The translations under genes and the position numbers were made by a program. The notes under the pieces were generated by a model, which was not told the DNA's origin, did not search any database, and worked only from the letters and a program-made list of their open reading frames with translations. A stretch of 64,000 bases of DNA from Fibrobacteria bacterium. Its GTDB lineage: Bacteria > Fibrobacterota > Fibrobacteria > UBA11236. The stretch covers positions 1 through 64,000 of the forward strand of contig JAYTSD010000038.1 in NCBI GenBank assembly GCA_043745805.1, in the 5' to 3' direction. Below, in pieces: positions 185 through 16,329 of the stretch; position 1 is the first letter of the stretch, and each line of letters begins with the position of its first letter.

Positions 185-958
185 TCAAAGTGCTTCAAAC
201 ATCGGCTTCGACACCACTTCATGCGTCAAACTACAAAGTATTTTACGATCCAATCCCCACGAAGTAATCACATCGCCAACACGAATCCGTGCATGAATTT
301 TAGGTAAAGCCAATAGGCCCCAAAAATGATCAGCAAAGGTTTGCATGCCAAACCAACAAATTCTTTTTTGTTCACTATCGCTCAAGGCATTCCCATTTCT
401 ATTGCAATACTCTAAGCGTATGGGTAACACACCAGTTTTTGCTCTTACTGCCGACTCGAAAAGCATAGGTTTAAAAGGCAAGATATTTAAGTCTGGACTT
501 GAAGTGCCTTCGGGAAAAAAAATAATAGCGCTGCCATGGCGCAATCCGCGCTCCATTAAATGTAAGGCAGTATAACTTTTGTTGCGTTGATCGCGATGGC
601 AAAATAAGCAACCAAAAATCCATGCCCATTGTCCAATCAAAGGCCAAAATCGTAATTCCGCTTTGGCAACAAATTGTGCGGGAATTAAAATATATAGTAA
701 TAGAACATCAAGGTAACTGCGATGATTTGCGGCGATAAGCAAACCTTGTGTTTGTTGCAATGCCTTGTAATTCCCTTCAACCTGAATATGTACGCCTAAT
801 AAAAGTCCAATACATTGCCCCACTTTATGTGCCAAAAAAGTAATGCAGCGAAAATGCAAAGTAGGACTTATCCAACGCAAAAAAATCCAACTCATTAATG
901 CAGGAATAGCAAATAGCATATTAAGGGCTACATAGCCCAAAAGTTTAACCAGCCTCAT
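185..958 (-). CDS. PlsC-family acyltransferase (OlsA-like candidate)
   Basis: NHRSYLD (HX4D), FVAKAE and FFPEGT motifs; hydrophobic N-terminus; starts 1 nt after the upstream stop. Confidence 0.88.
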   Translation of the reverse strand: MRLVKLLGYVALNMLFAIPALMSWIFLRWISPTLHFRCITFLAHKVGQCIGLLLGVHIQVEGNYKALQQTQGLLIAANHRSYLDVLLLYILIPAQFVAKAELRFWPLIGQWAWIFGCLFCHRDQRNKSYTALHLMERGLRHGSAIIFFPEGTSSPDLNILPFKPMLFESAVRAKTGVLPIRLEYCNRNGNALSDSEQKRICWFGMQTFADHFWGLLALPKIHARIRVGDVITSWGLDRKILCSLTHEVVSKPMFEAL

Positions 959-959
959 T

Positions 960-3734
960 TTAATTCATGAGTTCCATTAAGGTTTGGAAAAAATCTCCAT
1001 CGACCTTGGTTTTGGATTTCACTTCAGGAGCCTCATCCCAATCGGCAGAAAATAAGGTTTCCCCATTTTTGTCCAAGCCCACATCGCGCAATAAACGTTG
1101 CATAATAGGTCCCGGTGCATAGTTACGGGCGCGTTTAATCGCATAGCCTTGGAATAATTGTAAATAGGCAGGGAATTGCAAAAGTCGAATAGCATGTTCG
1201 GCCATCTCTTCGCATGTTTCTACTAAAAATCCGCTTTTTCCATCTTCAATTAAATCACGAGGACCCTTAGTATTATAAGCAATCACCGGAAGGCCACAAC
1301 TCATGGCTTCAAGCACGACGCAACCAAAAGTATCAAAGCGTGAAGGTAAGAGCAAGATTTGCGCGGAGGCATAAATGGCAGGTAACCTTTGAGTATCGAC
1401 CCACCCTAAAAATTCGGCATCAGGCAAGGCGGCTTTTAATTTTTCTTCGGCAGGCCCGGTACCCGCTAAAACTAAGCGTGCGCCAGGAATTTTGATGCGC
1501 ACTTGGGCAAGAACTTTAGGTAAGTCCATAACTCCTTTTTCTTCGCTTAAACGACCGGCGTATAATAATACGGGCGCTTCTAAGGTAGCCTTGGTCGAGG
1601 ATAAATCAGGACGTAACTCAGGAGTTACATCAGGAACAAAGCGTTCATGCGCCCAATGTGCGGTAAGGAAAATGTTTTCTCGTGGGATGCCCATGGCAGG
1701 ACTAGCTAGCCATTCTTTTTGTTCGGTATTTAATACAAAAATGCCATCAAACATTTTGTAAAAAGTTCTTAAGAAGCGACGCAATCTATCCATGGAAGCG
1801 GTATCAAAATTTAAAGTTCTTTGTGCGAAGTCTATCCAATCCGTATGCATGTAAAAATAAGCCGGTACACAAAACGCGTGCTTTAAATATAACGCATAAA
1901 AACCCATGGGAGCTTCGGTAGAGCAAATGATTCTATCATATCCGCCCTGCGCGAACGCTTCATGCAATTGTAATAAATCGGGAAGGCGAAAATTTTGGCC
2001 TTTATAAAATGGCAAAGTAAATTCGGAGATAGAAGGTAAAGCCAATAAATGTTCTTCGTTTTTTAAATTCGCACCGCAGGCTAAAAAATCAATGGGTAAA
2101 TCGCGGCGACGCACTTCTTCTAAATTTAACGAAAGCGCATGGGAAACACCATTTTTGTCACGTAACGTATCAGTTAACCATAGTAAGCGCTTGGGATGTT
2201 CTTGTTTCCCCAAAGCCGCAGCAAATTTATTTAGAAACGGTCTTTCGCCATACAATACTTTGGCGCTGGTAAAAGCTGCGCCGCCCATTACGGTAGCCGC
2301 GAGTAAGGGGAAAGATAAGCCATCGCTTAATTTACCAATATCCAAAGGTGTTTGATCGGGGCGACCTGTGCGTGAGGAGCTATCGAATAAGGCGCGCATT
2401 TGTGCTGGAATTTCTAAACGACGAATCCAGTCTTGTGAATTCCAACCTGTATGAGTTTGTTCAAAATTTTGAATTTTGTCGGTTACGCGCTCTGCTAAAA
2501 TTTTACTAAAGCGTGCAAACATAGCGGGCAAACGCTCGCGTAAAGTGATTAGCATGTCGTCAGGACCTTTTTGACGCGCAACTGCAATAGCATCGAGGTC
2601 ACTGATTAGAGGACGAAAGGTTTTGGAGGTAAACCAATGCGCAAAAATTCCTGGTTTTTCACCTTGTAAGCTTGCATGAAAGGCTTGTAAAAACCGTGAA
2701 GTTGTTTTATGTCGACGTAACTCCAACATGGCATTGGCAATTCCTAAAGCTAAAAGCTTTTCACTAGGTTCGCCGCGATGTAACATTAAACGTAATAGTC
2801 CAGGATCTTCCATGTGTAAAGCGACTTGGCAAAAATAATCTAAAAATGCAACGCGTAATCGTTCCTCTTCATGCGAGGATCCATATGGCGCCATCCGTCC
2901 GGCCTTCAAGGCCTCTAAGGCTAGTACCGATTTAGCTTCGGTTTTATTAGAAAGATTGGGAACATGTAATAATGTTCCAGTAGCTCCTGCAAAAATTCCC
3001 ATATGACAATCTGAACCTCCTGCGGCTAATTTGCGATAAGGATTTTTGCAAAAAGTATCCGCAGACAAACCGGTTCTTTTGGCCATCGCTTCAATCCGTT
3101 CGGGATTCATGCCTTCTAACCAAGTAGCGGTTAATAAATTTTGCCAAGTATCACGTTGGCCATTGACGCATTCAAAGCGTTCAAATAAAATTCCTAATCT
3201 ATCCATTAAGGCATTGGACGCATTATTGTCGGGGCAATAAAAATGCAAAGGATGCGCGAGTACGGTAACAATATCTTCACTACGGGTATATTCCAAAAAC
3301 TTGTAAATATCTTTGCGTAAGGTATTGAGGCGAGCCTCTTGTATTGGCGTGAAGCCATAGGTTAACACATGCACGCCTACATTAAAGTCGGGAAGGGTAC
3401 AGGAAAATTCGGCAGCAACTAATACATCTATTCCCTTTTCCAATAAACTCCAGCAGCTACGCGCATTATTATGATTGGTAATTGTTAAGACATCTGTTCC
3501 ATGACGTCGTAATGTGGCTGTTAAGGCTTCCGTGCGCAACCAAGTTTCTGGCAAACGCAATAAGCGTCCTAAGGTTTCATCGGGGACATCACTATTAAGA
3601 TCATGGCAATGTAAGTCGATTTTTAAAGTTTCTTCGGAAGGGAAGCCGGCGCTTTGTTGACGTAAAATAAAGTTACCTAATTCCGTTTGTAATCTTTCCC
3701 GAAAGGGTAAAGCAGAGGCATTTGAATTTATCAT
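960..3734 (-). CDS. PHP-like metallophosphoesterase domain fused to a GT4 glycosyltransferase
   Basis: N-terminal DLHCH, TITNHN, AHP, ECVNG, GGSDCH (PHP-type metal ligands); C-terminal TDT..NGV, YMHTDW, YAGRLSEEKG, PSRFDTFGCVVLEAMSCGLPV (GT4). Confidence 0.85.
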   Translation of the reverse strand: MINSNASALPFRERLQTELGNFILRQQSAGFPSEETLKIDLHCHDLNSDVPDETLGRLLRLPETWLRTEALTATLRRHGTDVLTITNHNNARSCWSLLEKGIDVLVAAEFSCTLPDFNVGVHVLTYGFTPIQEARLNTLRKDIYKFLEYTRSEDIVTVLAHPLHFYCPDNNASNALMDRLGILFERFECVNGQRDTWQNLLTATWLEGMNPERIEAMAKRTGLSADTFCKNPYRKLAAGGSDCHMGIFAGATGTLLHVPNLSNKTEAKSVLALEALKAGRMAPYGSSHEEERLRVAFLDYFCQVALHMEDPGLLRLMLHRGEPSEKLLALGIANAMLELRRHKTTSRFLQAFHASLQGEKPGIFAHWFTSKTFRPLISDLDAIAVARQKGPDDMLITLRERLPAMFARFSKILAERVTDKIQNFEQTHTGWNSQDWIRRLEIPAQMRALFDSSSRTGRPDQTPLDIGKLSDGLSFPLLAATVMGGAAFTSAKVLYGERPFLNKFAAALGKQEHPKRLLWLTDTLRDKNGVSHALSLNLEEVRRRDLPIDFLACGANLKNEEHLLALPSISEFTLPFYKGQNFRLPDLLQLHEAFAQGGYDRIICSTEAPMGFYALYLKHAFCVPAYFYMHTDWIDFAQRTLNFDTASMDRLRRFLRTFYKMFDGIFVLNTEQKEWLASPAMGIPRENIFLTAHWAHERFVPDVTPELRPDLSSTKATLEAPVLLYAGRLSEEKGVMDLPKVLAQVRIKIPGARLVLAGTGPAEEKLKAALPDAEFLGWVDTQRLPAIYASAQILLLPSRFDTFGCVVLEAMSCGLPVIAYNTKGPRDLIEDGKSGFLVETCEEMAEHAIRLLQFPAYLQLFQGYAIKRARNYAPGPIMQRLLRDVGLDKNGETLFSADWDEAPEVKSKTKVDGDFFQTLMELMN

Positions 3735-6217
3735 AGGTTATCCTGAGTAAGAGGAATAGTATTAAAAGGTTGTGGAGCTAAAGTCTCATGCCATGATTCG
3801 GCATGAGGAAGTGAAAAGAAAGTGAGGTGACCTTTGTTTTCTAGTAAGGGTATTTTTACCCGCTGGGATCCAATTTTATTTGTAGGCCCCATTTGATACG
3901 GTAACGATTGAGGCAGTAATAAATACAAAGGTGCAGAATCTTGATGTTGGCGACGATCAATATTCCAATTTAATTGTAAGGAGGTTTGATGTTGATGTAA
4001 TTTATAAGTTACGGTACCATATAATGTCGACGCCTGTTTAATTTCTAATTGTAATCCGGGAATAAACCATTCGGTGGGTACATTAGGAGCTAAAAGCAAT
4101 TCTCCCATTTGTTCCGTCACTAACATTTCGCGGGTAAGGCTTAAGAACTCAGCTGCTGACCAACCATGATCGCCATCGCCCATGCATCCTCCGTAAACCC
4201 TTGGATGTAAGGCTTCTGGCCAAGTATAAGTTTTCGTTGCACGCGCTTGTAAAGCTTGCATAATGGAAAACCAACGAGGATCTTGTACGCGCATCATGGC
4301 GCGTGCGAGTTGAATGGATAAATAAGGATTCAAACCGGTATGTACTATTTTTTGAAAAAACAATCCATCACGCATATTATTTTGCCAGAGATATTCAATG
4401 GTGTTTTTTACCCAGGGTTCATGAGGCGAGAATATATCTAAAGGTGAAATGGCTACTAAACCACCGATTGCTGAGGAATCCATCCAACGATATGGAGAGC
4501 TGGGTAAAGTTTCTTTCCCTACTTTATTGAAGGCCGATTGCATAGAGTGTAAAATATCAAGGCGATAGGTTTCCAAGGTATCGCTAATCCATGCAAGGTC
4601 TTTTTTCTTATTTAATTTCTGCGCGGCCCAAAGAGTTTCTTGAAAAGCGGCGAGACTCCAAAAATTATCCCAGTAATAATGATCATTGGGACCAAAATGT
4701 TCTGCCGAAAATCCAGCAGGTAATAATCCAAAATGTGGTGAAGGGGATTTTAAACTCGGTCCACGCATTTTTTCAATCCAATGCAATCCTTTGATTAATG
4801 CAGGATAAATTTTGTCTAAAATATCCAGATCGCCACCCATTCTTACATGGCGCACTAAGGTGAATATGGCTTGGCCATTGCTATCCCATTCACCTTTTTG
4901 GCTTTTGAAAAAACCATCCTTATCTTGTTGCGCCAAATAATTAGGCGCCTTGCTCTTAACCTTTTGTCCAAGACTCATATTTTCAAAAGCCAAAGCAATA
5001 AAAGCACTATCTCTAAACCAATGATGATGATAAAGAAACGTTCCTGGGGTAAAATATTTTCCATCGTCAAATACATGCAAATGATTTTTTACCGCATGAA
5101 AGGCTTCCGTAAGTTGCGGATCCGGTATGTTTATTTGCAAACCTTGTAAGGATTGTTCTATCCATTGTGATTTTTGCTTATCGCATGCAAGGAGCAAATT
5201 TTGCAGATTAATATTTTTGAATTTGGAAAGTGGGGAAATGGATAATCGTGAAAGCGTTCCCAAAGTTTGTAACTCCCACTTTTCACTTGGTGCCAGCTTT
5301 ACCGTAAATTCCGCAAGTCCTGTGGATATGCCAGAGCGGGAGCGTAAATATTTGCCAGAAAAAGCAGTAAGATCGTGACGTAAAGGATCCCCTTGATGCC
5401 TATCGGAGAGAATGATTTTATCGGGATCACTTAAGAGTAAAAGGCCTGGCTTATGATTTATGCGCCACAAACGATTTTTATATTGGATTTTATTAATATG
5501 CCCAATGGTTAAGGGGTTATAAGGACGCAAAGCTAAGCCGAAACATAGCTCAATATTTTTGTCGGACTGGTTTTCTAAATAATGTCCAAAGTGCATTAAC
5601 TCTTCGCCTTCAAGCGAAAGGGCTGAAGCTTCTGAGCGCCAAATTAATCCTGGTATACTTTGATATTCGGTAATTACGCAAGGCCAAAACCCATCTAAAA
5701 GTTTTTGCTTGACTAAACCATGCATTTCGGGTGGGGAAAATACCTTATGGGAAACTTTATTTGCAACCTTGTCGGTTACCCTCAAAAATGGAAATATCGA
5801 CCATCCATAAGGAGATAATGTTAACATGCCCACAGGATCCACCATACTCTCGCGTGGACTATCGGGCAAGCCTAGTGAGGTCCAATTACGTCCCGTCAAA
5901 TTAGTTTTGATTAAGTTAATGGCGGTGGGCATAAACTCTTCGCTGTCCGGTTGTATTTGGCGTTCAACCCAATAAGGCCAAACCCAATCTGGATTGCTTT
6001 GTATGGCCATGGTATTATTTAAACCTGAAAGCGCAATCGCCAAACCTTGCTCTAAAAGTTCATATGGAAACGCAATGGGTGCAGGACGCCCTAAATGAAT
6101 TAAACCATCCATAAAAGGAATGAGATAGTCCTTGCCAGCCCAAATTATGACTTTACGTGCTAACCATTCTAATCTAGAGGCGATTTGCATGGGACTAATT
6201 ATACACCTGATTGGCAT
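3731..6217 (-). CDS. Putative (alpha/alpha)6 six-hairpin glycosidase (GH15/GH63/GH78-like fold), function unknown
   Basis: HHWFRDSAF, GEWDSNGQ, SAEH, YWDNFW, WPEA and DHGW motifs; ATGA overlap with the next gene; alternative start ATG at 6190. Confidence 0.65.
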   Translation of the reverse strand: MPIRCIISPMQIASRLEWLARKVIIWAGKDYLIPFMDGLIHLGRPAPIAFPYELLEQGLAIALSGLNNTMAIQSNPDWVWPYWVERQIQPDSEEFMPTAINLIKTNLTGRNWTSLGLPDSPRESMVDPVGMLTLSPYGWSIFPFLRVTDKVANKVSHKVFSPPEMHGLVKQKLLDGFWPCVITEYQSIPGLIWRSEASALSLEGEELMHFGHYLENQSDKNIELCFGLALRPYNPLTIGHINKIQYKNRLWRINHKPGLLLLSDPDKIILSDRHQGDPLRHDLTAFSGKYLRSRSGISTGLAEFTVKLAPSEKWELQTLGTLSRLSISPLSKFKNINLQNLLLACDKQKSQWIEQSLQGLQINIPDPQLTEAFHAVKNHLHVFDDGKYFTPGTFLYHHHWFRDSAFIALAFENMSLGQKVKSKAPNYLAQQDKDGFFKSQKGEWDSNGQAIFTLVRHVRMGGDLDILDKIYPALIKGLHWIEKMRGPSLKSPSPHFGLLPAGFSAEHFGPNDHYYWDNFWSLAAFQETLWAAQKLNKKKDLAWISDTLETYRLDILHSMQSAFNKVGKETLPSSPYRWMDSSAIGGLVAISPLDIFSPHEPWVKNTIEYLWQNNMRDGLFFQKIVHTGLNPYLSIQLARAMMRVQDPRWFSIMQALQARATKTYTWPEALHPRVYGGCMGDGDHGWSAAEFLSLTREMLVTEQMGELLLAPNVPTEWFIPGLQLEIKQASTLYGTVTYKLHQHQTSLQLNWNIDRRQHQDSAPLYLLLPQSLPYQMGPTNKIGSQRVKIPLLENKGHLTFFSLPHAESWHETLAPQPFNTIPLTQDNL

Positions 6218-6240
6218 TAAAAAAAGGAACTAAGAGGTTA

Positions 6241-6257
6241 CGTAACAATTTTGTAAC
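6241..6257. promoter_or_regulatory. Pho-box-like 11-bp tandem repeat CGTAAC-N5-TGTAAC
   Basis: Hexamers at 6241 and 6252 in the divergent intergenic region; overlaps palindrome GTTACGTAAC (6237-6246). Confidence 0.5.
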
Positions 6258-6381
6258 AGGATAGGAATCGTTTTGCGACAAAATAAAATCGCGTGAAAAT
6301 ACTATAAGTGTTGTTTGGGTTTTTCACTCAAACGTCTCAACAAATTCCTGTACTCCAATTGCATGGCTATTGGGACGAGTT

Positions 6382-6414
6382 TGAAACGAATATGTAATCA
6401 AACATGGTTAATAT
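6382..6414 (+). promoter_or_regulatory. Pho-box-like repeat plus -10 element
   Basis: TGAAAC (6382) and TGTAAT (6393) 11 bp apart, then TAATAT 10 nt downstream (6409). Confidence 0.5.
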
Positions 6415-6442
6415 GTACACTAACCACAATATGGAGGACTTC

Positions 6443-6853
6443 ATGCGTAAAAAGATTTTTTTTAAAACTTTAATCTGTTTGCTATTGGGCTTGTGTTTTT
6501 TACACTGTAATCACTTACAATGTCGTACGGTGCTTTACCCTTCTGGTAACAAACAAGTTACTTATACTGTGATACAGGGAGAGTTTGAGGAAATTCCACA
6601 TGGATTGTATGTAACCTATTATGAAAATGGAATACATAAGTCTTTGACCGCTTATCGGAATGGACGCAAGGAAGGGTTTTTCATACAATGGTATACGAGT
6701 GGTAAGTTAAAATCAAGACAGGAATTTAGTGAAGGAGAGCCTTTGGGGCCCGAGGCATATTGGGATGAGACGGGCGCTTCATTAAATTGTTTAGCCAAAA
6801 GTGTTTCGAATAATGAGGAACGATTTTGTGAACTGGCTCAAGTTACGCGTTGA
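6443..6853 (+). CDS. Exported MORN-variant repeat protein (YwqK-like), possible lipoprotein
   Basis: GGAGG at 6433 before ATG 6443; signal peptide with Cys; repeats HGLYVTYYENG, EGFFIQWYTSG, GPEAYWDETG. Confidence 0.7.
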   Translation: MRKKIFFKTLICLLLGLCFLHCNHLQCRTVLYPSGNKQVTYTVIQGEFEEIPHGLYVTYYENGIHKSLTAYRNGRKEGFFIQWYTSGKLKSRQEFSEGEPLGPEAYWDETGASLNCLAKSVSNNEERFCELAQVTR

Positions 6854-6872
6854 TAAGTAACAACTTCTTTAC

Positions 6873-6949
6873 TTAAACAATTTCACAACCAAATTGTAAT
6901 AAGGCGCTAACCCAGTGAAAACTAATTTGTAATAGACTCTGGGTATTTT
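6873..6949 (+). promoter_or_regulatory. Six 11-bp-phased NNNAAY hexamers plus candidate -10, upstream of the olsB-like gene
   Basis: TTAAAC 6873, CACAAC 6884, TGTAAT 6895, GCTAAC 6906, GAAAAC 6917, TGTAAT 6928; TATTTT at 6944, 10 nt after the last unit. Confidence 0.5.
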
Positions 6950-7003
6950 ACTCACTAGGTCATTCAAATAAATCCTAAATGAAAAAATTAACTCGGAGTC
7001 TCC

Positions 7004-7798
7004 ATGTTTCCAGAAATCGAAAGCGGAAAGTTTCTTGTAAAAATTGCATCCACGGTTAACGAGCTTACGGCGGCTCAAAAATTTCGTTATGAAATTTTCC
7101 ATACTGATTCGGGCCTTACCAATGAAGACGGTATAGATGCCGATTATTATGATTCCTTTTGTGATCATCTATTAGTTATTGATAAGGAAAATGATGCTTT
7201 AGTGGGAACCTATAGGTTACATCCAGGTTATCGCTTGGAATCCTCACAAGGATTTTATTGCGAAAATGAATTTGAAATTGCGCATCTCCCAATGCAAAGA
7301 GAGCGCATATTAGAGTTGGGGCGTAGCTGCGTTCACCCTAATTATCGCGATGGCTCTATCATTCAATTATTATGGTTGGCTATTACTGCATATTTAGATG
7401 CAGGAAAATTCGAATTGTTAATGGGCGCAGCATCGGTTCCGCAATCTCAAGGAGCTATGATCAATGAAATGGCCGCTTATTTGTCTTATCAAGCGCCTGC
7501 ACCAGCTAACTATTTGGTGGATGTTAAGGAGCCTTATTGTATGACCTTTGGTTATCCACATTTGGCAGATTATCGTCGTTTAGGACATGCAGGTGATATC
7601 AGTATGCATGATTTTTTACCGCCTTTGCTCAAGGGTTATTTAAATCTTGGAGCATGGATTGCAAGCGCTCCGGCTTGGGATAAAGATTTTCAAACTTATG
7701 ATTTTTTAGTGTTATTGCATAAAGATCAAATACATCCCGGATATTTGAAAAGATTTCGTCGCATTTTGGCCCATATTGGATCTGAACAAAAGGTGTGA
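7004..7798 (+). CDS. olsB: OlsB-like GNAT N-acyltransferase (ornithine/amino-lipid synthesis)
   Basis: AQKFRYEIF, D.D.YD..CDHL, VGTYRL, FY.E.EF, LELGRSCVHPNYR, PPLLKGYL.LGA, D.DF.T.D motifs. Confidence 0.8.
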   Translation: MFPEIESGKFLVKIASTVNELTAAQKFRYEIFHTDSGLTNEDGIDADYYDSFCDHLLVIDKENDALVGTYRLHPGYRLESSQGFYCENEFEIAHLPMQRERILELGRSCVHPNYRDGSIIQLLWLAITAYLDAGKFELLMGAASVPQSQGAMINEMAAYLSYQAPAPANYLVDVKEPYCMTFGYPHLADYRRLGHAGDISMHDFLPPLLKGYLNLGAWIASAPAWDKDFQTYDFLVLLHKDQIHPGYLKRFRRILAHIGSEQKV

Positions 7799-7870
7799 TA
7801 ACAAGCAATTTGGTGTTTTTTAGGGTTTAAAAGCCAGTTTTTTTGTTCTAAGTTTTATCACGATAAAGAA

Positions 7871-7898
7871 TGAAACGTCTTTGAAATAGTTTAGAAAT
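7871..7898 (+). promoter_or_regulatory. Triple Pho-box-like repeat upstream of the porin-pst operon
   Basis: TGAAAC 7871, TGAAAT 7882, AGAAAT 7893, exact 11-bp period. Confidence 0.6.
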
Positions 7899-7951
7899 AT
7901 ACAAATCCTTTTATTTATCCCATGATTTTAAACAACCTGTATGGAGGAAAA

Positions 7952-9457
7952 ATGAAGAGATTTTTGTTATTACCATTAGTATTGCTACCCTTGGGTTTAG
8001 TCAATGCGCAAACCCCAGATTCCACTCAAAATGCAAAACCCGTAGATGAAGAATTCACAAAATTAAAAGGCACTGTTGAAGGTTTGAATGAAAGTTATAC
8101 CGACACTAAAAATACGGTGGACAAATTAAGTAAACTTAAAGTTGGTGGATACATTCAAGCTCAATGGCAACATGCAGACAGTAATGGTATCAGTTCTGCA
8201 GCCGGTGGTAACTTTCCTGGATCGTCTAATCAGCGTTTGCAGATCCGTCGCGGGCGTTTAAAAACATCGTATGATGCAGGTACAAGTCAGTATGTTTTGG
8301 AATTTGAAGTGCTCCCAAGTGGTGTTAGCATGAAAGATGCTGAGATTATTTTAAATGAGCCTTGGTTAAAAACATTTAGTTTAACGGCTGGGTTGATGGA
8401 TAGACCTTTTGGCTTTGAAATTCCCTATTCGTCTTCGGCTCATGAAGCACCTGAACGTACTCGCGTTTATCAAACTGTGTTTCCAGGTGAAAAAGATTTG
8501 GGTGTGAAATTGGAAATGAATCCAGGTGATGACATGGGATTCTTAAAGTATTTCAACTTGAAAGGTGGTTTGTATACTGGAACTGCTGGTGGTTCAACCC
8601 CAACGAATCCTGTTTCTCTCACCTCTACTAAACTAGTTGTTAAGGATAGTTTGGGTAAGGCAATCAAAGATACCGTAACAGCAAATATTCCGAATGGAAA
8701 AACTGCAGCAGCATCAAATGGCGATGAAGTGGATAGCACAATGGATTTCATTGGTCGAATTGGTTTCAAGGCACCCTTTCAAGAGCTAGGTTTAGCAATT
8801 GATGGAGGATATTCTGTTTATTTAGGTCAATCAATGAGCGGAAATGACACTGTTTATCAATTATCTGGTACTAATTCATTGGCAACAACTGGCAATAAAA
8901 ACAAAAAATTTGATCGCCAAGTATTTGGTGCGGATTTGCAAGCTTATTATGATTTGCCATATGTTGGCGGGCTTTCGATTCGCGGTGAATATTTGATGGG
9001 CACTATGCCTGGTACGATAGCAAGTAGTAAAAACTATGGCTCGTCTGGTGCAGCCGTGGGTAATGATTTCCCTAAGTCCTATATGGTAATGCGTAATTTT
9101 TCGGGATGGTATGTGTCTTGGATACAAAACCTTGGAAGCAAATTTCAAACAGTTGTGAAATATGATGTATACGATCCAAATTCAGATGTCAAAGGAAGTG
9201 CTGTTGGATTGGCTGCCAATGGAGCATTAAATGAACAAGATCTTCAATATCAAACATTGGGAATGGGTTTGATATACTATTGGGATGCTAATGTTAAAAT
9301 AACTGCTTATTATGACATGGTCACAAATGAAAAAACAAATTCAGCAACACCAGATTTCCTAGATGCACCGACCAATAAAAAACCAAACTCTCTCGCTTTG
9401 TACAAAAAAGATTTAAGCGATAATGTGTTTACACTTCGCTTGCAGGTAAAATTCTAA
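7952..9457 (+). CDS. Outer-membrane porin, phosphate-selective OprO/OprP-like
   Basis: GGAGG before ATG 7952; signal peptide; GYIQAQW, IRRGRLK, PFGFE motifs; C-terminal beta-signal LRLQVKF; directly upstream of pstS. Confidence 0.75.
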   Translation: MKRFLLLPLVLLPLGLVNAQTPDSTQNAKPVDEEFTKLKGTVEGLNESYTDTKNTVDKLSKLKVGGYIQAQWQHADSNGISSAAGGNFPGSSNQRLQIRRGRLKTSYDAGTSQYVLEFEVLPSGVSMKDAEIILNEPWLKTFSLTAGLMDRPFGFEIPYSSSAHEAPERTRVYQTVFPGEKDLGVKLEMNPGDDMGFLKYFNLKGGLYTGTAGGSTPTNPVSLTSTKLVVKDSLGKAIKDTVTANIPNGKTAAASNGDEVDSTMDFIGRIGFKAPFQELGLAIDGGYSVYLGQSMSGNDTVYQLSGTNSLATTGNKNKKFDRQVFGADLQAYYDLPYVGGLSIRGEYLMGTMPGTIASSKNYGSSGAAVGNDFPKSYMVMRNFSGWYVSWIQNLGSKFQTVVKYDVYDPNSDVKGSAVGLAANGALNEQDLQYQTLGMGLIYYWDANVKITAYYDMVTNEKTNSATPDFLDAPTNKKPNSLALYKKDLSDNVFTLRLQVKF

Positions 9458-9525
9458 GATTTTTCGCTCTCCTTTAAAGAGAGTATTTTTGAATTAAATG
9501 GAAATTAAAATTAGGAGAATAGATT

Positions 9526-10350
9526 ATGAAAACAAAAAGTTTAATCAGTAAATTAATACTTGGTTTAACCGTGAGCGCATTTGCTGGCGAAACCATTACT
9601 GTTAAAGGTTCGGACACCATGGTTATTATGGCACAACGTTGGGCTGAAGCCTATATGGGTTCACATCCTGAAGTTAACATTCAAGTTACAGGTGGCGGAT
9701 CCGGTACGGGTATTAGTGCTTTAATTAATGGTACTACCGATATTTGCGATGCCTCGCGCCCGATGAAATCGTCGGAAAGGGAAAGCTTAAAATCTCGTTT
9801 CAGTTCTTTAGGTGTAGAAATCAAAAGTGCAAAAGATGGTCTTGCGGTTTTTTTACATGAAAGTAATTCGGTAACCGAATTAACCCTCGGTCAAATCAAA
9901 GATATTTATACTGGTAAAATCAAAAACTGGAAAGAAATTGGTGGACCCGACGCGAAGATTATTATCTATGGTCGTGAAAATAATTCTGGTACCTATGTGT
10001 ATTTCCGTGACAATGTTTTGCAAGGTAAAGACTTCGTCGCGAGTATGCAAAGCATGCCAGGAACCGCAGCGGTAGTGAATGCCGTGTCTAAGGACAAAAT
10101 GGGTATTGGCTTTGGCGGCGCGGCTTATGGCAAAGGGATTAAATTCGCAAAAATAAAAAAAGATGCCAATTCCCCGGGTTATGAACCCAATTCGGAAACT
10201 GTGAAAAGTGGAACTTATCCAATTTCTCGCTATCTTTATATGTACACCAAAAGCCGTCCAACGGGCGAACTTAAGAAGTACATTGATTGGATTCTCAGCA
10301 ATGAAGGTCAAGCGATTGTCGAAAAAGTTGGTTATTTTTCTATTCGTTAA
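9526..10350 (+). CDS. pstS: Phosphate ABC transporter substrate-binding protein
   Basis: KGSDTM, GGGSGTGI, ASRPMK, GRENNSGTY, YPISRYLY; AGGAG RBS. Confidence 0.95.
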   Translation: MKTKSLISKLILGLTVSAFAGETITVKGSDTMVIMAQRWAEAYMGSHPEVNIQVTGGGSGTGISALINGTTDICDASRPMKSSERESLKSRFSSLGVEIKSAKDGLAVFLHESNSVTELTLGQIKDIYTGKIKNWKEIGGPDAKIIIYGRENNSGTYVYFRDNVLQGKDFVASMQSMPGTAAVVNAVSKDKMGIGFGGAAYGKGIKFAKIKKDANSPGYEPNSETVKSGTYPISRYLYMYTKSRPTGELKKYIDWILSNEGQAIVEKVGYFSIR

Positions 10351-10359
10351 AAAACATGT

Positions 10360-10380
10360 CGCATCCCTCAATGGGATGCG
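10360..10380 (+). other. Stable hairpin between pstS and pstC (likely mRNA-stabilising)
   Basis: CGCATCCC-TCAAT-GGGATGCG with no U-tract. Confidence 0.55.
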
Positions 10381-10397
10381 CACAACCCAAGAGTTAA

Positions 10398-11459
10398 ATG
10401 TTGGTTGATTTAAAAAAACAAAAACGCGAACCCCTTTCTTTAAAAAAACGCTTTCGGTTATCCGAGTTTTTGGCCGAAAAAATTATTACTTCTATTGCTT
10501 TTCTTTCTTTAGCTTTCATCGCTTTAATTTTTGTTTTCGTTTTTCGCGAAACTTACCCAATATTCCTTGAGCATAAATTTGCTGCATCGGCTAATCAAAC
10601 AACCGTGGGGGAGAGTGAGACTTATGGCGAAGAAGCCGCTGCTCCCGAGAGCAAAAATACAATGGAATCCGTGGTTACTCCTGAGGCCATTGAAAATGGA
10701 GTGGCCGCTTCTAATATATTTAGCACCGATTGGCAGCCAGTATCGCAACAACCAAAATATGGGATTTGGCCGTTAATTGCAGGTAGCTTTAAAGTTACCT
10801 TTGTGGCTATACTTATTGCTTTGCCGATGGGCGTTTTAGCAGCTTTATATACCTCTACTTTTGCCGCGAAGTGGGCTAAAGAATTAATGAAGCCGGCCAT
10901 TGAGATTCTGGCAGGATTTCCTTCTGTGGTTATTGGTTTTTTTGCCCTTATCGTGCTGGCTTCTCTTTGCCAAAAAATATTTGGTTATGAATATCGTCTC
11001 AATGCTTTTATTGGAGGCTTAGCGCTTTCGCTAGCGGTTATACCCATTATCTATACGCTTTCAGAAGATGCCCTTTCAGCAGTACCGAAGGTATTAACCG
11101 AGGCCAGCTTAGCCTTAGGTGCGACGCGCTGGGAAACCGCATTTTTTGTAGTGTTACCTGCGGCAACGCCGGGAATTTTTGCAGCCTCATTACTTGGGGT
11201 AGGCCGAGCTTTTGGGGAAACCATGATTGTACTTATGGCTACGGGTAATGCTGCCTTGTTATCTTTCCACCTATTTGAACCGGTACGTACCGTGTCGGCT
11301 ACTATCGGTGCTGAAATGGCCGAAGTGGTTTTTGGAGATACGCATTATCATGTATTATTCTTATTAGGATTAATGCTTTTTGTTTTCTCTTTTGCATTAA
11401 ATGCCATTGCGGAATTTTTAATTCGTCAAAAACTCATGAAGAAATTTAAGGGATTATAA
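10398..11459 (+). CDS. pstC: Phosphate ABC transporter permease PstC
   Basis: [41 protein letters not shown]. Confidence 0.95.
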   Translation: MLVDLKKQKREPLSLKKRFRLSEFLAEKIITSIAFLSLAFIALIFVFVFRETYPIFLEHKFAASANQTTVGESETYGEEAAAPESKNTMESVVTPEAIENGVAASNIFSTDWQPVSQQPKYGIWPLIAGSFKVTFVAILIALPMGVLAALYTSTFAAKWAKELMKPAIEILAGFPSVVIGFFALIVLASLCQKIFGYEYRLNAFIGGLALSLAVIPIIYTLSEDALSAVPKVLTEASLALGATRWETAFFVVLPAATPGIFAASLLGVGRAFGETMIVLMATGNAALLSFHLFEPVRTVSATIGAEMAEVVFGDTHYHVLFLLGLMLFVFSFALNAIAEFLIRQKLMKKFKGL

Positions 11460-12364
11460 TGACCTTGAAGAAAAAAATAACGGGACATCTTGTCGAATTG
11501 ATCACGGGAGCGAGTGCATTTCTAATTATCGCTGCGGTAGCTTGGGTGTTAATAGAAATATTTGTGGGTGGCCATAAAGATCTCACTTGGGTATTTTTAA
11601 CCCATGCTCCAGAAGAAGGCATGACGGGCGGAGGAATATTTCCAGCTATTGTCGGGACTTTTTTTTTAGTACTAATGATGTCTATTGCCGGTGTCCCCAT
11701 TGGCACGCTTACCGCGATTTATTTAAGTGAATATGTAAAGCAAGGATCTTGGATTGCTAAATGGATACGTTTCGCTGTAAATACACTTTCAGGAATTCCC
11801 GCTATTGTATTTGGTTTATTTGGCTTGGGATTTTTTGTGCAATTTGTTGGCGGTGGCATGGATAAGGCTTTTACGCCCGTCGGAAAATTGCATTGGGCGC
11901 AACCCAATTTATTATGGGCCAGCTTAACTATGGCTTTATTGACTTTGCCGGTAGTGATTGTTTCTGTAGAAGAAGCGATTAAAAATGTTCCACGTGATTT
12001 GCGAGAAGCGAGTTTAGCTTTAGGAGCAACCAAATGGCAAACTATTCTTAAAGTGGTTATCCCTAATTCTATGACAGGTATTTTAACCGGTGGGATTTTA
12101 GCCGTGAGTCGTGGGGCCGGCGAAGTAGCGCCTATTTTATTTACAGGGGCTGCCTATTTTTTGCCGCATTTACCGACCTCAACTTCCGATCAATTTATGG
12201 AACTAGGCTATCATATATACATCATGTCTACCCAAAGTGCTGATGTGGAAAAGACCCGTGGCATTCAGTATGCTACCACATTAGTTTTATTATTACTCAC
12301 ATTTACCCTAAACTTCTCAGCCATATTTATGCGTTATAAAATGCGTCGTCGTATGTTGGCTTAA
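11459..12364 (+). CDS. pstA: Phosphate ABC transporter permease PstA
   Basis: [41 protein letters not shown]. Confidence 0.95.
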
Positions 12365-12383
12365 GAATAAACAAGAGGATTTA

Positions 12384-13172
12384 ATGGCAACACTCGAAAT
12401 AAACGCCGCCGTTACGGCAACGGAAAAATTGAAAGTAGACAATTTTAATTTGTTTTATGGTCAAAAACATGCCTTGAAGAATGTGTCTTTAAAAATGCCT
12501 GAGCATAAAGTAACGGCTTTTATTGGTCCTTCGGGATGCGGTAAAAGTACCTTGATCCGTTCGTTAAATCGTATGAATGATTTAATTGAGAATGTAAAAA
12601 TTGAGGGTAAAGTCTTTGTCGACGGTATTGATATTTACGATAAAAAAGTCGATGAAGTGGAGCTACGAAAAAAAGTGGGAATGATTTTTCAAAAATCTAA
12701 CCCTTTTCCCAAATCTATTTACGAAAATGTGGCTTATGGTCCCCGTATTCATGGTTTAAAAGATAAAGCCGAAATGGATGTGATTGTAGAAAAATGTTTG
12801 CGTGGCGCTGCTTTGTGGGATGAAGTAAAAGATGATTTGAAAAAAAGCGCTTTAGCTTTATCGGGTGGTCAACAACAAAGACTTTGTATTGCCCGTGCCT
12901 TGGCTGTTAATCCCGAAGTATTATTAATGGATGAACCGGCTTCCGCATTGGATCCTATCGCTACGGCAAAAATCGAAGAATTGGTTTATGAATTAAAAGA
13001 TCATTATACTATTGTAATCGTTACGCATAATATGCAACAAGCGGCGCGAGTGAGTGATTTTACGGCCTTCTTTTATTTAGGCCAACTCATTGAAGTGGAT
13101 GCTACCGAAAAAATATTTACTTCACCAAAAGTAAAACAAACTGAAGACTATATAACGGGGAGATTTGGCTAA
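12384..13172 (+). CDS. pstB: Phosphate ABC transporter ATPase
   Basis: [53 protein letters not shown]. Confidence 0.97.
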
Positions 13173-13843
13173 TGGAAAGACATTTCGAAAAAGAATTAAA
13201 CAATTTAAAAGCGATGCTCCAAAAAATGGCGGGACTCGCGGAAGAGTCCTTAGCATTGTGTACCCGCGCTTTATTGGAAGGCAATAAAGAATATGCAGAG
13301 CAAACTTTTGCGAATGAGCGCTTAATTAATGCCTTAGAAATTGATATCGATCATCATGTAGCCGATTTCTTCGCCCTGCATCAGCCTGTGGCTATTGATT
13401 TGCGCTTTATGTTGGCTATCGAAAAGATTAATAATGATTTAGAGCGCATTGGCGATCATTGCGTGAACATCGCTCAATCTGCCATTAGTTATATCAGCTT
13501 TGCGGAAAAAAAAGATTTAATAGAATTGCCTAAAATGACGGTTATCGCCCGTTCGATGTTACACGATGCCGTAGAAAGTTTTTTTACAAAAAATGCTCAA
13601 TTGGCTCGCACGGTTTTGGAAACGGATGATATGATTGACGATTTAAATCGTTCCATGACTCGAGAAGTGATTAATCTGGCGAAGAGTGATAAGGCTTCTG
13701 TAGAATTAGCTTTTGAACTTTTGCGTGTGAGCAAAAATTTGGAACGCATTTCCGATTTATCAACCAATATTGCCGAAGAAATGATCTTTCATGTGCAAGC
13801 CCGTGTGGTTAAGCATCATGCAGAAGATTACAAAGATATTTAA
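13172..13843 (+). CDS. phoU: Phosphate signalling regulator PhoU
   Basis: QPVAIDLR, DLERIGDH, NLERISDLSTNIAE; last gene of the pst operon. Confidence 0.95.
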   Translation: MERHFEKELNNLKAMLQKMAGLAEESLALCTRALLEGNKEYAEQTFANERLINALEIDIDHHVADFFALHQPVAIDLRFMLAIEKINNDLERIGDHCVNIAQSAISYISFAEKKDLIELPKMTVIARSMLHDAVESFFTKNAQLARTVLETDDMIDDLNRSMTREVINLAKSDKASVELAFELLRVSKNLERISDLSTNIAEEMIFHVQARVVKHHAEDYKDI

Positions 13844-13902: not shown

Positions 13903-16056
13903 TTATTTTTGCTGGGCGTTTTCCGTGATCGGAAAATGTTCCGTTTTTATTTCTACTAATTTTCTTGTTTGAATTTTAAATTCGGCAAGGAAGGATGATG
14001 CTATGAGGGGCGGCTGGCTCATGAGAATTTTTTGCGCATCGATTTTATTTTTTTCCTCACGCCGCCATTTGTATTGCCCATCGCTTTGCATAGAGTGGGA
14101 TTTTGCTGTATCCGCCCAATACAATTCTAAAATAGCTTCCATTCTGGATTTTAAATCTGCCTGAGTAATGGGAACTAATACTTCAACTCTATCGCGTAAA
14201 TTTCGCTTCATCCAATCGGCGCTACCTAAAAATAATAATGGCTCACCTTGGTTACCGTAACAAAATATTCGACTATGCTCTAAATACCGACCGACCACGC
14301 TAATGACTTCTATATTCTCGCTTAAACCTTTAATGCCAGGCCTTAAAGAGCAAATGCCGCGTACAATTAAGCGAATTGTTACTCCAGCTTGCGAGGCGGC
14401 ATACAGGGCTTCGATTAACTCGGCATCCACCAAGGCATTCATTTTTGCCATAATGAGTGTGGGCTTATTTTCTTTAGCCCATTCAGTTTCCGCTTTGATT
14501 AAACGTAAGGTTTCGTTTAATAAATTAACCGGCGCTACCAATAGGGATTTGAAATCGGGAAAATTGGAATAGGCACTGAGGAAATTAAATACATCACCCA
14601 CTCCAGCGGTGATTTCTTCAGCACAAGTAAAAAAACTTAAGTCGGTATAAAATTTAGCAGTATCGGGATTGTAATTGCCGGTTCCAATATGCGCGTATAT
14701 TCTTAGCTCCGATCCTTCACGTCTCGTGATCAAAGTTATTTTACAATGAGTTTTGTAGCCCACCACACCATAAAGTACCGTGCCGCCTTTTTCCTCTAAT
14801 TGTCGCGCCCAGTTAATATTGGATTTCTCATCGAAACGTGCTTGTAATTCAACAATGGCCACCACTTCCTTTTCTTGTTCGGCAGCACTTTGTAAGGCAC
14901 GCATAATAGGAGATTCTAAACTGGTGCGATAAAGCGTTTGTTTAATCGCCAGCACGGTGGGATCTTTTGCAGCACTTTTAATAAATTCCACAACGGGATC
15001 ATAGGATTCAAAAGGATGATGTAACAGAATATCATTTTGTTTGATCTGCTCAAAAATACCCAATGATGAAGGGCTTAAAGTATTAATTGGTATATGAATA
15101 GGATATTTTAAATGGCCTGAGGAGAGGGCTTGATATAGGCCCATTAAGCGATTAAGATTTACTGGACCATTCACCCGAAAAACCAAAAAAGGCACTAAAT
15201 CAAGTTTAGCCATTAATGCTTCAATGAGCAGCTCGGGAGCATCTTTTTCAATTTCTAAGCGCACAACATCGCCTTTACGCCTATCGTGGACTACGCTTTC
15301 AACGGCTTCTATTAAATTTTCATTATCGTCCGAGTCGAGGTAAAGGTTGCTGTTGCGGGTAATTCTAAAGGAGGTGCAGTATTGAATCGAATATCCTTTA
15401 AACAATTCTTGCACAAAATGACGAATAATTTCATATAAAAAAATAAACGAGGTTTGCGAATTATTTCCTGGAATTCGAATGAGTCGCGGTAAGCTGCGAG
15501 GTACGGTGATAATCCCTAAGCTTTCCGCAGGAGCTTGGCTGTCCGTCCCCAAAAACACCGCCATACACAAAGCTTTATTTAATAAGCGCGGAAAAGGATG
15601 TGCGGGATCGACTTTAATGGGTGTGAGTAAGGGATAAACTTCATGCAAGAAATAATGTTGTAATGCAGCGGTTTCATGCGCATGTAAATCCGAAAAATCT
15701 TTGATACGAATATTCTCTGCTTCGAGCAGAGGTAACAGCTCTTCATTCCAACATTGATATTGTTGGGCGTTGAGGCGATTTATTCTTTGCAATAATAGCT
15801 TTAGTTTTTCCGAACAATCCATTTCTGCGATGCCATCCGCAGGTATAGCAAATTCAATTTTTTGCAAGAGTGCTGCAATGCGGACTTCGAAAAATTCATC
15901 CATATTGTTGGCCACAATAGAGAGAAATTTAATGCGCTCCAATAATGGATTTTCATCGTTACGAGACTCACAAAATACGCGTTCATTAAAGGCTAACCAA
16001 GAAAAATCTCGGTCAATGTATCGACTATGCTTTTTTTGATCTGATAGTGTTACCAA
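13903..16056 (-). CDS. ppk1: Polyphosphate kinase 1
   Basis: RDFSWLAFNERV, NMDEFFEVR, HPFP, LLHHPFESY, IKQTLYRT, KTHCK, GTGNYN, GRYLEHSR, GSADWM.RN; TTG start. Confidence 0.97.
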   Translation of the reverse strand: MVTLSDQKKHSRYIDRDFSWLAFNERVFCESRNDENPLLERIKFLSIVANNMDEFFEVRIAALLQKIEFAIPADGIAEMDCSEKLKLLLQRINRLNAQQYQCWNEELLPLLEAENIRIKDFSDLHAHETAALQHYFLHEVYPLLTPIKVDPAHPFPRLLNKALCMAVFLGTDSQAPAESLGIITVPRSLPRLIRIPGNNSQTSFIFLYEIIRHFVQELFKGYSIQYCTSFRITRNSNLYLDSDDNENLIEAVESVVHDRRKGDVVRLEIEKDAPELLIEALMAKLDLVPFLVFRVNGPVNLNRLMGLYQALSSGHLKYPIHIPINTLSPSSLGIFEQIKQNDILLHHPFESYDPVVEFIKSAAKDPTVLAIKQTLYRTSLESPIMRALQSAAEQEKEVVAIVELQARFDEKSNINWARQLEEKGGTVLYGVVGYKTHCKITLITRREGSELRIYAHIGTGNYNPDTAKFYTDLSFFTCAEEITAGVGDVFNFLSAYSNFPDFKSLLVAPVNLLNETLRLIKAETEWAKENKPTLIMAKMNALVDAELIEALYAASQAGVTIRLIVRGICSLRPGIKGLSENIEVISVVGRYLEHSRIFCYGNQGEPLLFLGSADWMKRNLRDRVEVLVPITQADLKSRMEAILELYWADTAKSHSMQSDGQYKWRREEKNKIDAQKILMSQPPLIASSFLAEFKIQTRKLVEIKTEHFPITENAQQK

Positions 16057-16273: not shown

Positions 16274-16329
16274 ATTATAAGAACTAAGGTAATAGCGAGT
16301 TTTTTCATGGCAGTTACAAATGGGTTTCG
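16274..16329 (-). promoter_or_regulatory. Activator-type promoter for microprotein-ppk1
   Basis: Minus-strand TATAAT (16279-16274) with no recognisable -35; minus-strand CGAAAC, TGTAAC, TGAAAA at + positions 16324, 16313, 16302 (11-bp period). Confidence 0.6.

Follow-up and report, generated by a model that had tools for sequence, protein, structure and literature searches.

A candidate Pho-controlled island in a Fibrobacteria genome that places amino-lipid genes beside a PHP–GT4 fusion with a possible role in phospholipid replacement

The first 64,000 nucleotides of contig JAYTSD010000038.1 (contig C38 of genome G000, Fibrobacteria assembly GCA_043745805.1), hereafter the window, carry a translationally coupled operon beside the phosphate-uptake genes pstSCAB-phoU. 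The operon encodes a six-hairpin glycosidase-fold protein, a fusion of a predicted PHP-fold phosphoesterase domain with a GT4 glycosyltransferase domain, and an OlsA-like acyltransferase of the PlsC family, and is divergent from genes for a MORN-like and an OlsB-like protein. We tentatively read the locus as a Pho-controlled phosphorus-sparing island, in which an amino-lipid pair stands beside a fused analogue of the PlcP-Agt system that turns phospholipid into glycolipid; we regard this reading as quite possible, if somewhat short of probable. Within it, Pho control is inferred from 11-nt-periodic repeats, while the lipid character of what the enzymes use and make, and the task of the glycosidase-like protein, are proposals. 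The source genome has a size of 3.95 Mb and is 99% complete, and its nearest relatives in public records are metagenome-assembled genomes (MAGs) of Fibrobacteria or Fibrobacterota. The stretch is present in four DNA sequencing runs, all from one sediment-metagenome study. The features of the locus are as follows.

185..958, minus strand: OlsA-like PlsC-family acyltransferase (257 aa), last visible gene of the operon
960..3734, minus strand: fusion of PHP phosphoesterase, helical linker and GT4 (924 aa, P0001), from Pfam for GT4 and from predicted fold
2865..3632, minus strand: PHP-fold domain, approximately residues 35–290 of P0001, from predicted fold and invariant residues
1095..2177, minus strand: GT4 domain, approximately residues 520–880 of P0001, from Pfam
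3731..6217, minus strand: six-hairpin glycosidase-fold protein (828 aa, P0002), first gene of the operon, from predicted fold
6242..6258, in operon-strand reading: Pho-box-like direct repeat TGTTAC-N5-TGTTAC, exact match
6383..6398, minus strand: second two-unit repeat, ATTAC-N6-GTTTC at 11-nt spacing, in the divergent intergenic region; weak alone
6404..6853, plus strand: small secreted MORN-like protein (149 aa), sub-threshold MORN_2 match; probable start at 6443 behind GGAGGA
7004..7798, plus strand: OlsB-like N-acyl amino acid synthase (264 aa), PF13444
7872..7898, minus strand: three-unit 11-nt-periodic array ATTTC-N6-ATTTC-N6-GTTTC, upstream of the porin-pst operon
7922..9457, plus strand: probable phosphate-selective outer-membrane porin (511 aa), probable start at 7952, from Atlas clusters
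9526..13843, plus strand: pstS-pstC-pstA-pstB-phoU, from Pfam and NCBIfam
13903..16056, minus strand: polyphosphate kinase 1 (ppk1), four PPK1 Pfam domains
16313-16328 (plus strand) and 16415-16430 (minus strand): two 11-nt-spaced GTTWC pairs upstream of ppk1, from a repeat scan

An earlier reading of this DNA from its letters alone (the sequence-only reading) had proposed a coupled operon of glycosidase-like, PHP-GT4 and PlsC genes, and this is what is seen: the genes for the 828-aa and 924-aa proteins overlap in ATGA, and the plsC start codon lies 1 base past the stop codon of the fusion gene, both read from the sequence. The contig end, at which the window starts, is 184 nt beyond the stop codon of plsC, and the 3' end of the operon is incompletely visible. 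Beyond the divergent MORN-like and OlsB-like genes the operon adjoins porin-pstSCAB-phoU. The genes pstS, pstC, pstA, pstB and phoU all point in the same direction; PstS scores 247.8 bits on TIGR02136, over the cut-off of 206.6 bits, and the operon further matches BPD_transp_1 (twice), ABC_tran and PhoU in Pfam. The sequence-only reading had extended this unit from a porin to ppk1. Its pst genes stand, the porin holds at the level of an Atlas lead, and ppk1, which is convergent with phoU on the opposite strand, is a neighbour of the pst operon and not a member. The protein at 7922-9457 has no Pfam or NCBIfam match, and its nearest clusters in the language-model Atlas are 'phosphate-selective porin O and P' (Porin_O_P, score 0.98); the porin identity, taken from Atlas clusters alone, is a lead, and the gene is kept upstream of pstS in relatives. 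As to the other family labels of that reading, PlsC, GT4, OlsB-like (by PF13444), PstS, the permeases, the ATPase, PhoU and PPK1 were recovered with Pfam and NCBIfam, while the PHP and glycosidase labels hold as predicted folds only and the MORN label corresponds to a MORN_2 match of 23.5 bits, below the 29.6-bit cut-off. The MORN-like protein has a hydrophobic N-terminus.

The 264-aa protein matches PF13444 with 100.9 bits and the OlsB models NF052555 and NF052554 with 146.2 and 140.1 bits (cut-offs 320 and 350), and scores 18.8 bits on the glycine-lipid model GlsB. The 257-aa protein matches PF01553 with 83.5 bits, contains the motifs HX4D (NHRSYLD) and FPEGT, and has as its top NCBIfam models the OlsA lyso-ornithine-lipid O-acyltransferases, at 113.5 and 95.5 bits (cut-off 300). 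The pair thus shares with the OlsB/OlsA system a PF13444 N-acyltransferase and an HX4D PlsC-family O-acyltransferase whose best NCBIfam models are OlsB and OlsA, and differs from it in that both proteins score under half of the equivalog cut-offs and that the two genes lie on opposite strands, split by the 5-kb operon. Judged by sequence, two-step amino-lipid synthesis of the ornithine-lipid type is a reasonable fit to this pair. The earlier assignment of OlsB/OlsA-type genes is accordingly reasonable by PF13444 and PF01553 but does not reach equivalog level (146 versus 320 and 113 versus 300 bits), and such scores do not single out one head-group amino acid. The OlsB-like gene is the sole copy found in the genome by tblastn. 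Its product has one close orthologue among 40 relatives, with 61% identity in genome G008, and the others share 31–37% identity. A link between Pho and ornithine-lipid synthesis is already established for other bacteria (references in PMC12722247).

The central gene of the operon encodes the 924-aa fusion. Residues 520–880 match PF13692 (114 bits), PF00534 (109 bits) and PF13439 (40 bits), all above cut-offs, and include the GT-B donor-binding domain of GT4 glycosyltransferases. This donor half is conserved and similar to many GT4 enzymes. A profile of the GT4 domain finds matches in the Protein Data Bank (PDB) that cover the donor-binding half only, and the search is therefore silent on the acceptor; among these matches are sucrose-phosphate synthase 6kih and TreT. 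NCBIfam matches include lipopolysaccharide (LPS), teichuronic-acid and exopolysaccharide transferases, and the only model that aligns across both GT4 halves is NF053787, a GlcNAc-phosphatidylglycerol synthase, with 62.5 bits against a cut-off of 480.

The first 520 residues of the fusion have no Pfam or PDB sequence match, and a profile of the PHP region found no match among PDB sequences. Even at E <= 10, Pfam gave stray matches only on 22 fusion homologues, with the PHP family PF02811 at E 0.12 in one of the 22 and not in the window protein; by sequence the domain is too divergent to reach the PF02811 threshold. Its fold was recognised from an AlphaFold model (m846073f5c753, pLDDT 85.8), for which Foldseek returned the PHP domain of RNase AM (7ug9, E 6.7e-7, TM to target 0.60), PsfC (7rty), TM0559 (2anu) and 3e38. 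Nine residues (H42, H44, D45, H88, E109, H122, H161, D242 and H244) do not vary across the 22 aligned homologues, and we take them, by motif order, to fall on the canonical PHP motifs (HxH, H, E, H, H, DxH). The model thus points to an N-terminal PHP fold whose active site looks intact. It resembles PHP phosphoesterases (RNase AM/TrpH, TM0559, PsfC, histidinol phosphatase) in fold and in the full set of His/Asp/Glu metal-ligand positions, and differs from them in escaping the Pfam PHP model and in its added helical domain, hydrophobic helix and GT4 fusion. The PHP barrel is followed by a helical region (approximately residues 290–470) and by a strongly conserved hydrophobic helix between the domains (residues 474–495); no signal peptide was found. 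No operon protein matches a Metallophos family in Pfam, that is, none carries a PlcP-type phosphoesterase, and no HAD family, the phosphatase type of SPS-SPP, was found on the fusion. Full-text searches of the literature, covering main texts, found no description of a PHP-glycosyltransferase fusion in phosphate limitation, and a search within PMC12722247 met no mention of PHP. ESM Atlas clusters of approximately 574–648 aa from Actinomycetota join a canonical PF02811 PHP domain and PHP_C to Glyco_transf_4, and a recognisable PHP-GT4 fusion exists in that phylum too.

The first operon gene encodes an 828-aa protein without Pfam, NCBIfam or PDB sequence match (PDB by phmmer). The database version has 819 aa and begins nine residues later, which points to 6190 as the likely start codon. 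All 120 listed homologues lack a Pfam domain and bear the source names 'hypothetical' or 'uncharacterized protein'; the family comprises 330 representative clusters at E <= 1e-30 and 2058 at E <= 1e-3. In the predicted model (pLDDT 85.5) an (alpha/alpha)6 barrel lies between two beta-sandwiches. Foldseek placed GH94 phosphorylases first (1v7v, E 4e-18, TM ~0.55), and VIA-align ranked the GH15-type dextran dextrinase 9ju0 (Z 28.6), a bacterial glucoamylase (1lf6, Z 27.2) and glucodextranase (Z 27.0) highest, with GH65, GH116 and GH100 invertases close behind; a GH100 invertase has the highest sequence identity in the list (14–17%). The protein thus shares the three-domain architecture of GH15, GH94, GH65 and GH116 six-hairpin enzymes, with Z 27–29 over approximately 550 residues for the GH15-type, but has only 9–12% identity to them, no sequence-level match and its own invariant acidic residues, e.g. 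E443, D445, E506, D512, D517, E668, D681, D683 and E690. Sequence comparison with Pfam, NCBIfam and PDB placed the protein in no named GH family, nor did it point to the catalytic residues of one. The term glycosidase-like is meant at the level of the modelled fold, at which hydrolase, phosphorylase and transglycosylase are indistinguishable.

The strongest indirect argument for a lipid product comes from paralogues. Two further six-hairpin genes were found in the genome by tblastn (30–34% identity; 801 and 485 aa), both located after a sigma-70-family gene and before a gene for a 426-aa GT4.

C39:25561-29246: paralogous module L088, six-hairpin paralogue (801 aa) and 426-aa GT4
C11:37704-42801: paralogous module L089, six-hairpin paralogue (485 aa), 426-aa GT4 and phosphoesterase

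Both of these transferases have alpha-monoglucosyl-diacylglycerol synthase as their top NCBIfam model, aligned over the full length with 145 and 161 bits against a cut-off of 400, and GlcNAc-phosphatidylglycerol synthase as the second model. The C11 module ends in a 787-aa protein with a nucleotide-pyrophosphatase-type (NPP) and an EEP-type phosphoesterase domain. By sequence, the trio of six-hairpin protein, GT4 and phosphoesterase thus appears to recur with a different phosphoesterase fold, and a lipid product is favoured because the transferases of the paralogous modules look lipid-directed.

Fusion loci were surveyed with one genome per species; 210 fusion relatives were found, of which the best 80 were kept, representing 77 distinct loci with homologues at 43–58% identity. 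Flanks of up to 10 kb per locus were seen (1.02 Mb in total), and related genomes are not independent. The 77 loci derive from at least six phyla: Bacteroidota (n = 46), Fibrobacteria (n = 14, including L033, which is labelled Bifidobacteriales and was grouped by similarity), Gammaproteobacteria (n = 5), Fibrimonadales (n = 3), Acidobacteriota (n = 2), and single loci from Lambdaproteobacteria, Magnetobacteriaceae, Deltaproteobacteria, Leptospira and a spirochaete. A six-hairpin gene lies directly upstream of the fusion gene in 19 loci by tblastn (17 of these 19 were recovered by blastp on open reading frames (ORFs)), and a GH13 gene lies at most 1 kb downstream in 16; no locus has both. The GH13 partner matches PF00128 with 468 bits and, in NCBIfam, Agrobacterium 'BglA' with 519.6 bits (cut-off 900), followed by TreC and TreS. 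Two non-homologous glycosidase-type partners in the same place are an argument that a glycoside-cleaving or -transferring step belongs to the system, without being adjacent everywhere.

The sequence-only reading had staked itself on homologues lying close to each other and to Pho genes in other genomes, and in several phyla they do. Genes for OlsB, PlsC or OlsF are in the flanks of 13 of the 77 loci (six Fibrobacteria, three Gammaproteobacteria, three Bacteroidota and one Leptospira), and pst genes in those of 10 (four Fibrobacteria, three Bacteroidota, and one each in the gammaproteobacterium Nitrincola, 'Deltaproteobacteria' and Fibrimonadales). By our own estimate, less than one linkage of either kind is expected by chance at one to two such loci per 4-Mb genome. 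In locus L031, from a gammaproteobacterial MAG, a genuine OlsF (802 bits, cut-off 620) is encoded 2 kb downstream; in L076, from a Leptospira MAG, olsB, a weak hydrolase-like gene, the fusion gene and GH13 are co-directional; and in two Nitrincola loci the fusion gene and a phosphonate-type ABC transporter (PF12974) diverge from each other. At least five separate lineages, which differ in gene order, show linkage to pst or phosphonate-transporter genes. In loci L038 and L043 the fusion gene is followed by olsB, a weak homologue of the MORN-like gene (26–30% identity) and ppk1, and six-hairpin and OlsB-like genes share a contig in genomes G002, G006, G011, G013, G015 and G027. The whole gene set is a recurring island subject to rearrangement.

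Pho control is suggested by repeats of a unit [GA]T[TA][TA]C with an 11-nt period, which occur upstream of the operon, the porin gene and ppk1. The operon site at 6242-6258 reads exactly TGTTAC-N5-TGTTAC (GTTAC-N6-GTTAC at 6242-6257) and is upstream of the first operon gene, by 25 nt if its start is the ATG at 6217 and by 52 nt if it is the likelier codon at 6190; this exact sequence has four copies genome-wide versus approximately 0.8 expected. The probable porin start, at 7952, is 54 nt downstream of the array at 7872-7898. No repeat units were found between the MORN-like and olsB genes or between the porin gene and pstS. The promoter repeats that the sequence-only reading had thought common to the locus are thus shared by the operon, porin-pst and ppk1, and were not found before olsB and pstS. 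Twelve non-redundant Fibrobacteria upstream regions of the six-hairpin gene were compared, including that of L006 (genome G021); four duplicates, four short or ill-placed regions and eight non-Fibrobacteria loci were left out. They contain 28 GT[TA][TA]C pairs at 11-nt spacing and 0–8 at each of the remaining spacings between 5 and 24 nt (8 each at 17 and 22 nt). Genome-wide, GTT[TA]C pairs number 94 at spacing 11 (19 intergenic, according to a crude ORF map) and 14–48 at each of the remaining spacings between 7 and 16 nt (2–7 intergenic), and three of the 19 intergenic pairs are in the 17-kb island region, at 6242, 16313 and 16415. Twelve flanking genes examined at the 19 intergenic sites, outside the window, are mostly unrelated to phosphate, and the two-unit pattern alone is therefore not specific. 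Longer arrays discriminate better: the looser unit [GA]T[TA][TA]C forms eight intergenic arrays of at least three units, at seven places in the genome, and two of the eight precede the two pst operons of the genome. We regard the 11-nt repeat as a candidate for the Pho box of this lineage, on good circumstantial evidence from sequence.

The second pst operon (C1:195205-203421) comprises genes for a PhoB-like regulator, a PhoR/PnpS-like kinase, pstS2, pstC, pstA, pstB and phoU, and its three-unit ATTTC array with 11-nt period is located 58 nt upstream. Its PhoB-like regulator scores 199 and 195 bits on PhoB models, below cut-offs. Within the window, an OmpR-family regulator and a PAS histidine kinase are encoded at 21272-23351 on the minus strand, 7.4 kb from phoU; the best model of this regulator is PhoB (186 bits, cut-off 296). 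No array was found upstream of this PhoB-like/PAS-kinase pair or directly upstream of pstS2 within its operon. The genome's longest array, with five units in phase at the 11-nt period, lies beyond the window at C38:82504-82552, 52 nt upstream of a gene for a 282-aa protein without NCBIfam match. TGTTAC-N5-TGTTAC with at most one mismatch was rejected as a Pho marker, with 55 copies versus approximately 29 expected, many of which are the palindrome TGTAACA-N3-TGTTACA. This palindrome recurs widely (e.g. C14:114694, C28:67728, C46:5953 and C38:86689) and is probably the site of a different regulator. A generic scan for sigma-70 promoters and terminators found sites no more numerous than in shuffled sequence, and a generic repeat search over 6200-10000 returned chance-like families only and did not reveal the periodic motif.

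Put together as a phosphorus-sparing island, the genes suggest the following scheme. The OlsB-like N-acyltransferase would make a lyso-amino-lipid, which the OlsA-like PlsC enzyme would O-acylate to a phosphorus-free amino-lipid of the ornithine-lipid type. In parallel, the trinuclear-metal PHP domain would cleave the phosphorylated head group of a glycerophospholipid or dephosphorylate a lipid phosphate, freeing phosphorus for reuse, and the GT4 domain would move a sugar from a nucleotide sugar to the freed diacylglycerol, yielding an alpha-glycosyl lipid. The six-hairpin protein, as a glycosidase, transglycosylase or phosphorylase, might trim, extend or later recycle the sugar head group, and in Bacteroidota a GH13 alpha-glucosidase would take its place. 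That the PHP-GT4 protein is itself a single-chain head-group swapper, which strips the phospholipid head and glycosylates the resulting diacylglycerol, and works with a dedicated glycosidase, transglycosylase or phosphorylase from a Pfam-less family in a phosphate-starvation route of lipid renovation independent of PlcP and present in at least six phyla, is a separate and bolder claim that we consider possible, with more doubt than belief.

The scheme has precedents in its parts. Remodelling of lipids under phosphorus deficiency by PlcP and a glycosyltransferase is described in PMC4796936, Flavobacterium induces PlcP and a glycosyltransferase on phosphate depletion (PMC8115612), and in Desulfovibrio alaskensis glycolipids and ornithine lipids jointly replace phospholipids (PMC5193443). 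With PlcP-Agt of SAR11, Phaeobacter, Agrobacterium and Pseudomonas (PMC4796936), the locus shares the pairing of a phosphoesterase with a GT4-type transferase and the linkage to starvation genes, and with D. alaskensis it shares parallel amino-lipid synthesis. PlcP is a calcineurin-like metallophosphoesterase (pf12850 in PMC8115612), whereas the window enzyme has a predicted PHP fold. The window phosphoesterase is moreover fused to its transferase, with a helical extension of approximately 220 residues, and its lipid activity is a proposal. PlcP-Agt systems, unlike the window operon, have no glycosidase-fold partner that we know of.

Several observations weigh against the scheme. Concerning the enzymes, we know of no PHP-family enzyme shown to act on lipids, and by structure the PHP domain matches nucleases and phosphoesterases of small molecules. 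In the GT4 domain, the acceptor half has no counterpart among characterised enzymes in the PDB, and the alpha-monoglucosyl-diacylglycerol synthase (Mgs) model gives the fusion 40.6 bits against a cut-off of 400. No clear transmembrane segment was found in the fusion, the helix at 474–495 being borderline by hand-computed hydropathy. Both partner types, the GH13 oligo-1,6-glucosidase/TreC kind and the GH15/GH100-like six-hairpin kind, are typical of soluble sugar metabolism, and among the 50 loci whose visible flanks reach 2.5 kb or more upstream and 2 kb or more downstream, 24 have neither glycosidase partner adjoining. Concerning the locus, the coupling of plsC to the fusion gene was seen in neither of the two closest genomes searched: in G008 the OlsB orthologue and an OlsA-like gene, separated by 1.5 kb, are on another contig, and G004, with a six-hairpin gene and the fusion gene adjoining in locus L003, yielded no OlsB match with the window query. 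Concerning regulation, the repeat unit was chosen after these promoters had been viewed, and the comparison of spacings is the sole control. Two-unit sites also precede unrelated genes (TonB-dependent receptor, E2 acyltransferase, YidC and others), and a second exact TGTTAC-N5-TGTTAC at 59080-59096 of the window is followed, after approximately 160 nt, by a gene for an rsmE-like RNA methyltransferase without obvious phosphate link. The units of the operon sites in relatives have the opposite orientation, relative to the gene, to those of the pst operons of the window genome. Finally, among the public runs listed, no RNA run carries the stretch.

Much of this evidence could also be accommodated by a soluble alpha-glucoside cycle, an explanation that we rate as somewhat unlikely. 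In such a cycle the GT4 domain would glycosylate a phosphorylated small acceptor (a sugar phosphate, glycerol-3-phosphate or phosphoglycerate), the PHP domain would remove the phosphate and the partner would hydrolyse or phosphorolyse the product, by the logic of SPS-SPP and TPS-TPP and with the purpose of recovering phosphate from the sugar-phosphate pool or storing carbon when phosphorus limits growth. Like these enzymes, the fusion joins a retaining glycosyltransferase and a phosphatase in one polypeptide, with product-degrading enzymes (GH13, invertase-/trehalase-like six-hairpin) encoded nearby. The fusions of glycosyltransferase and phosphatase known to us all make soluble glycosides. 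Sucrose-phosphate synthase and TreT among the PDB matches, the absence of any signal peptide or clear transmembrane helix found in the fusion, and the alternative partners, which belong to enzyme classes that degrade small alpha-glucosides (TreC/TreS-like GH13; GH15- and GH100-like fold), all favour this cycle, which explains the partner types better than the lipid scheme does. It explains less well the repeated linkage to amino-lipid synthases, cases within the same operon included. The transferases of the paralogous modules are most like diacylglycerol glucosyltransferases, a hydrophobic helix is conserved between the domains, and the one model to span both GT4 halves, if weakly, is GlcNAc-phosphatidylglycerol synthase. 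The window phosphatase also differs from that of SPS-SPP and TPS-TPP in being PHP instead of HAD and N-terminal, the GT4 acceptor half is unlike SPS or TreT, and the context is one of phosphate uptake and lipid synthesis. No described Pho-regulated soluble-glucoside pathway turned up in literature scans, which were aimed at other questions.

That the neighbourhood is coincidental, reflecting a shared ancestral gene order near pst with no phosphate regulation and with repeats that bind an unrelated regulator, is decidedly unlikely. The two-unit repeats before unrelated genes, the exact copy upstream of the rsmE-like gene and the non-independence of the relatives as samples are compatible with it, but it does not account for linkage to pst or phosphonate-transporter genes across at least five lineages in differing gene orders, nor for the way in which arrays of at least three units single out both pst operons. 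We consider it quite improbable that the fusion edits envelope glycans by dephosphorylating a precursor (lipid A/LPS core, or a polyprenyl-phosphate-linked or teichoic-like unit) and capping it with sugar, so that outer-membrane phosphate would be replaced by sugar during starvation. Such replacement of envelope phosphate by sugars occurs in some bacteria, and both the LPS, teichuronic-acid and exopolysaccharide transferases among the GT4 matches and the Pho context would suit it. However, no LPS or polysaccharide genes are conserved beside the fusion in the 77 loci, and the partner glycosidases and amino-lipid genes would be left unexplained. Hardly credible is a glycosylated amino-lipid, raised as a possibility in the sequence-only reading, in which GT4 decorates the OlsB/OlsA product: plsC shares the operon of the fusion and olsB is co-directional with it in the Leptospira MAG, but 64 of the 77 loci have no amino-lipid gene in the flank seen, G004 gave no OlsB match with the window query, G008 has its OlsB/OlsA-like genes on another contig, and the phosphoesterase would have no role, with no obvious substrate in a phosphorus-free amino-lipid.

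Replacement of phospholipids by phosphorus-free lipids is a major microbial answer to phosphate scarcity and shapes lipid biomarkers in sediments and waters. To our knowledge, PlcP with Agt is the sole well-studied bacterial route of glycolipid renovation. The fusion is widespread (Fibrobacterota, Bacteroidota, Acidobacteriota, several proteobacterial lineages and spirochaetes) and repeatedly has genes for phosphate uptake and amino-lipids as neighbours; were it to act on lipids, it would represent a second, unrecognised renovation pathway and provide a function for two large unannotated families. Should the product instead be a soluble glucoside, the locus would encode a phosphate-recycling sugar pathway under Pho control, of which we know no bacterial example. 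New at this locus are a family of six-hairpin partners, an operon that joins the fusion to an OlsA-like gene, a candidate Pho island in Fibrobacterota marked by periodic repeats, and paralogous modules whose GT4s resemble diacylglycerol glucosyltransferases.

Two further genes touch on phosphate and membrane lipids. A second ppk1 copy is located at C37:23208-25157 of the genome, with 59% identity to the ppk1 of the window, and a gene at 57125-58183 on the plus strand of the window encodes a PF03706 lysyl-phosphatidylglycerol-synthase transmembrane domain and is thus another membrane-lipid-related gene.

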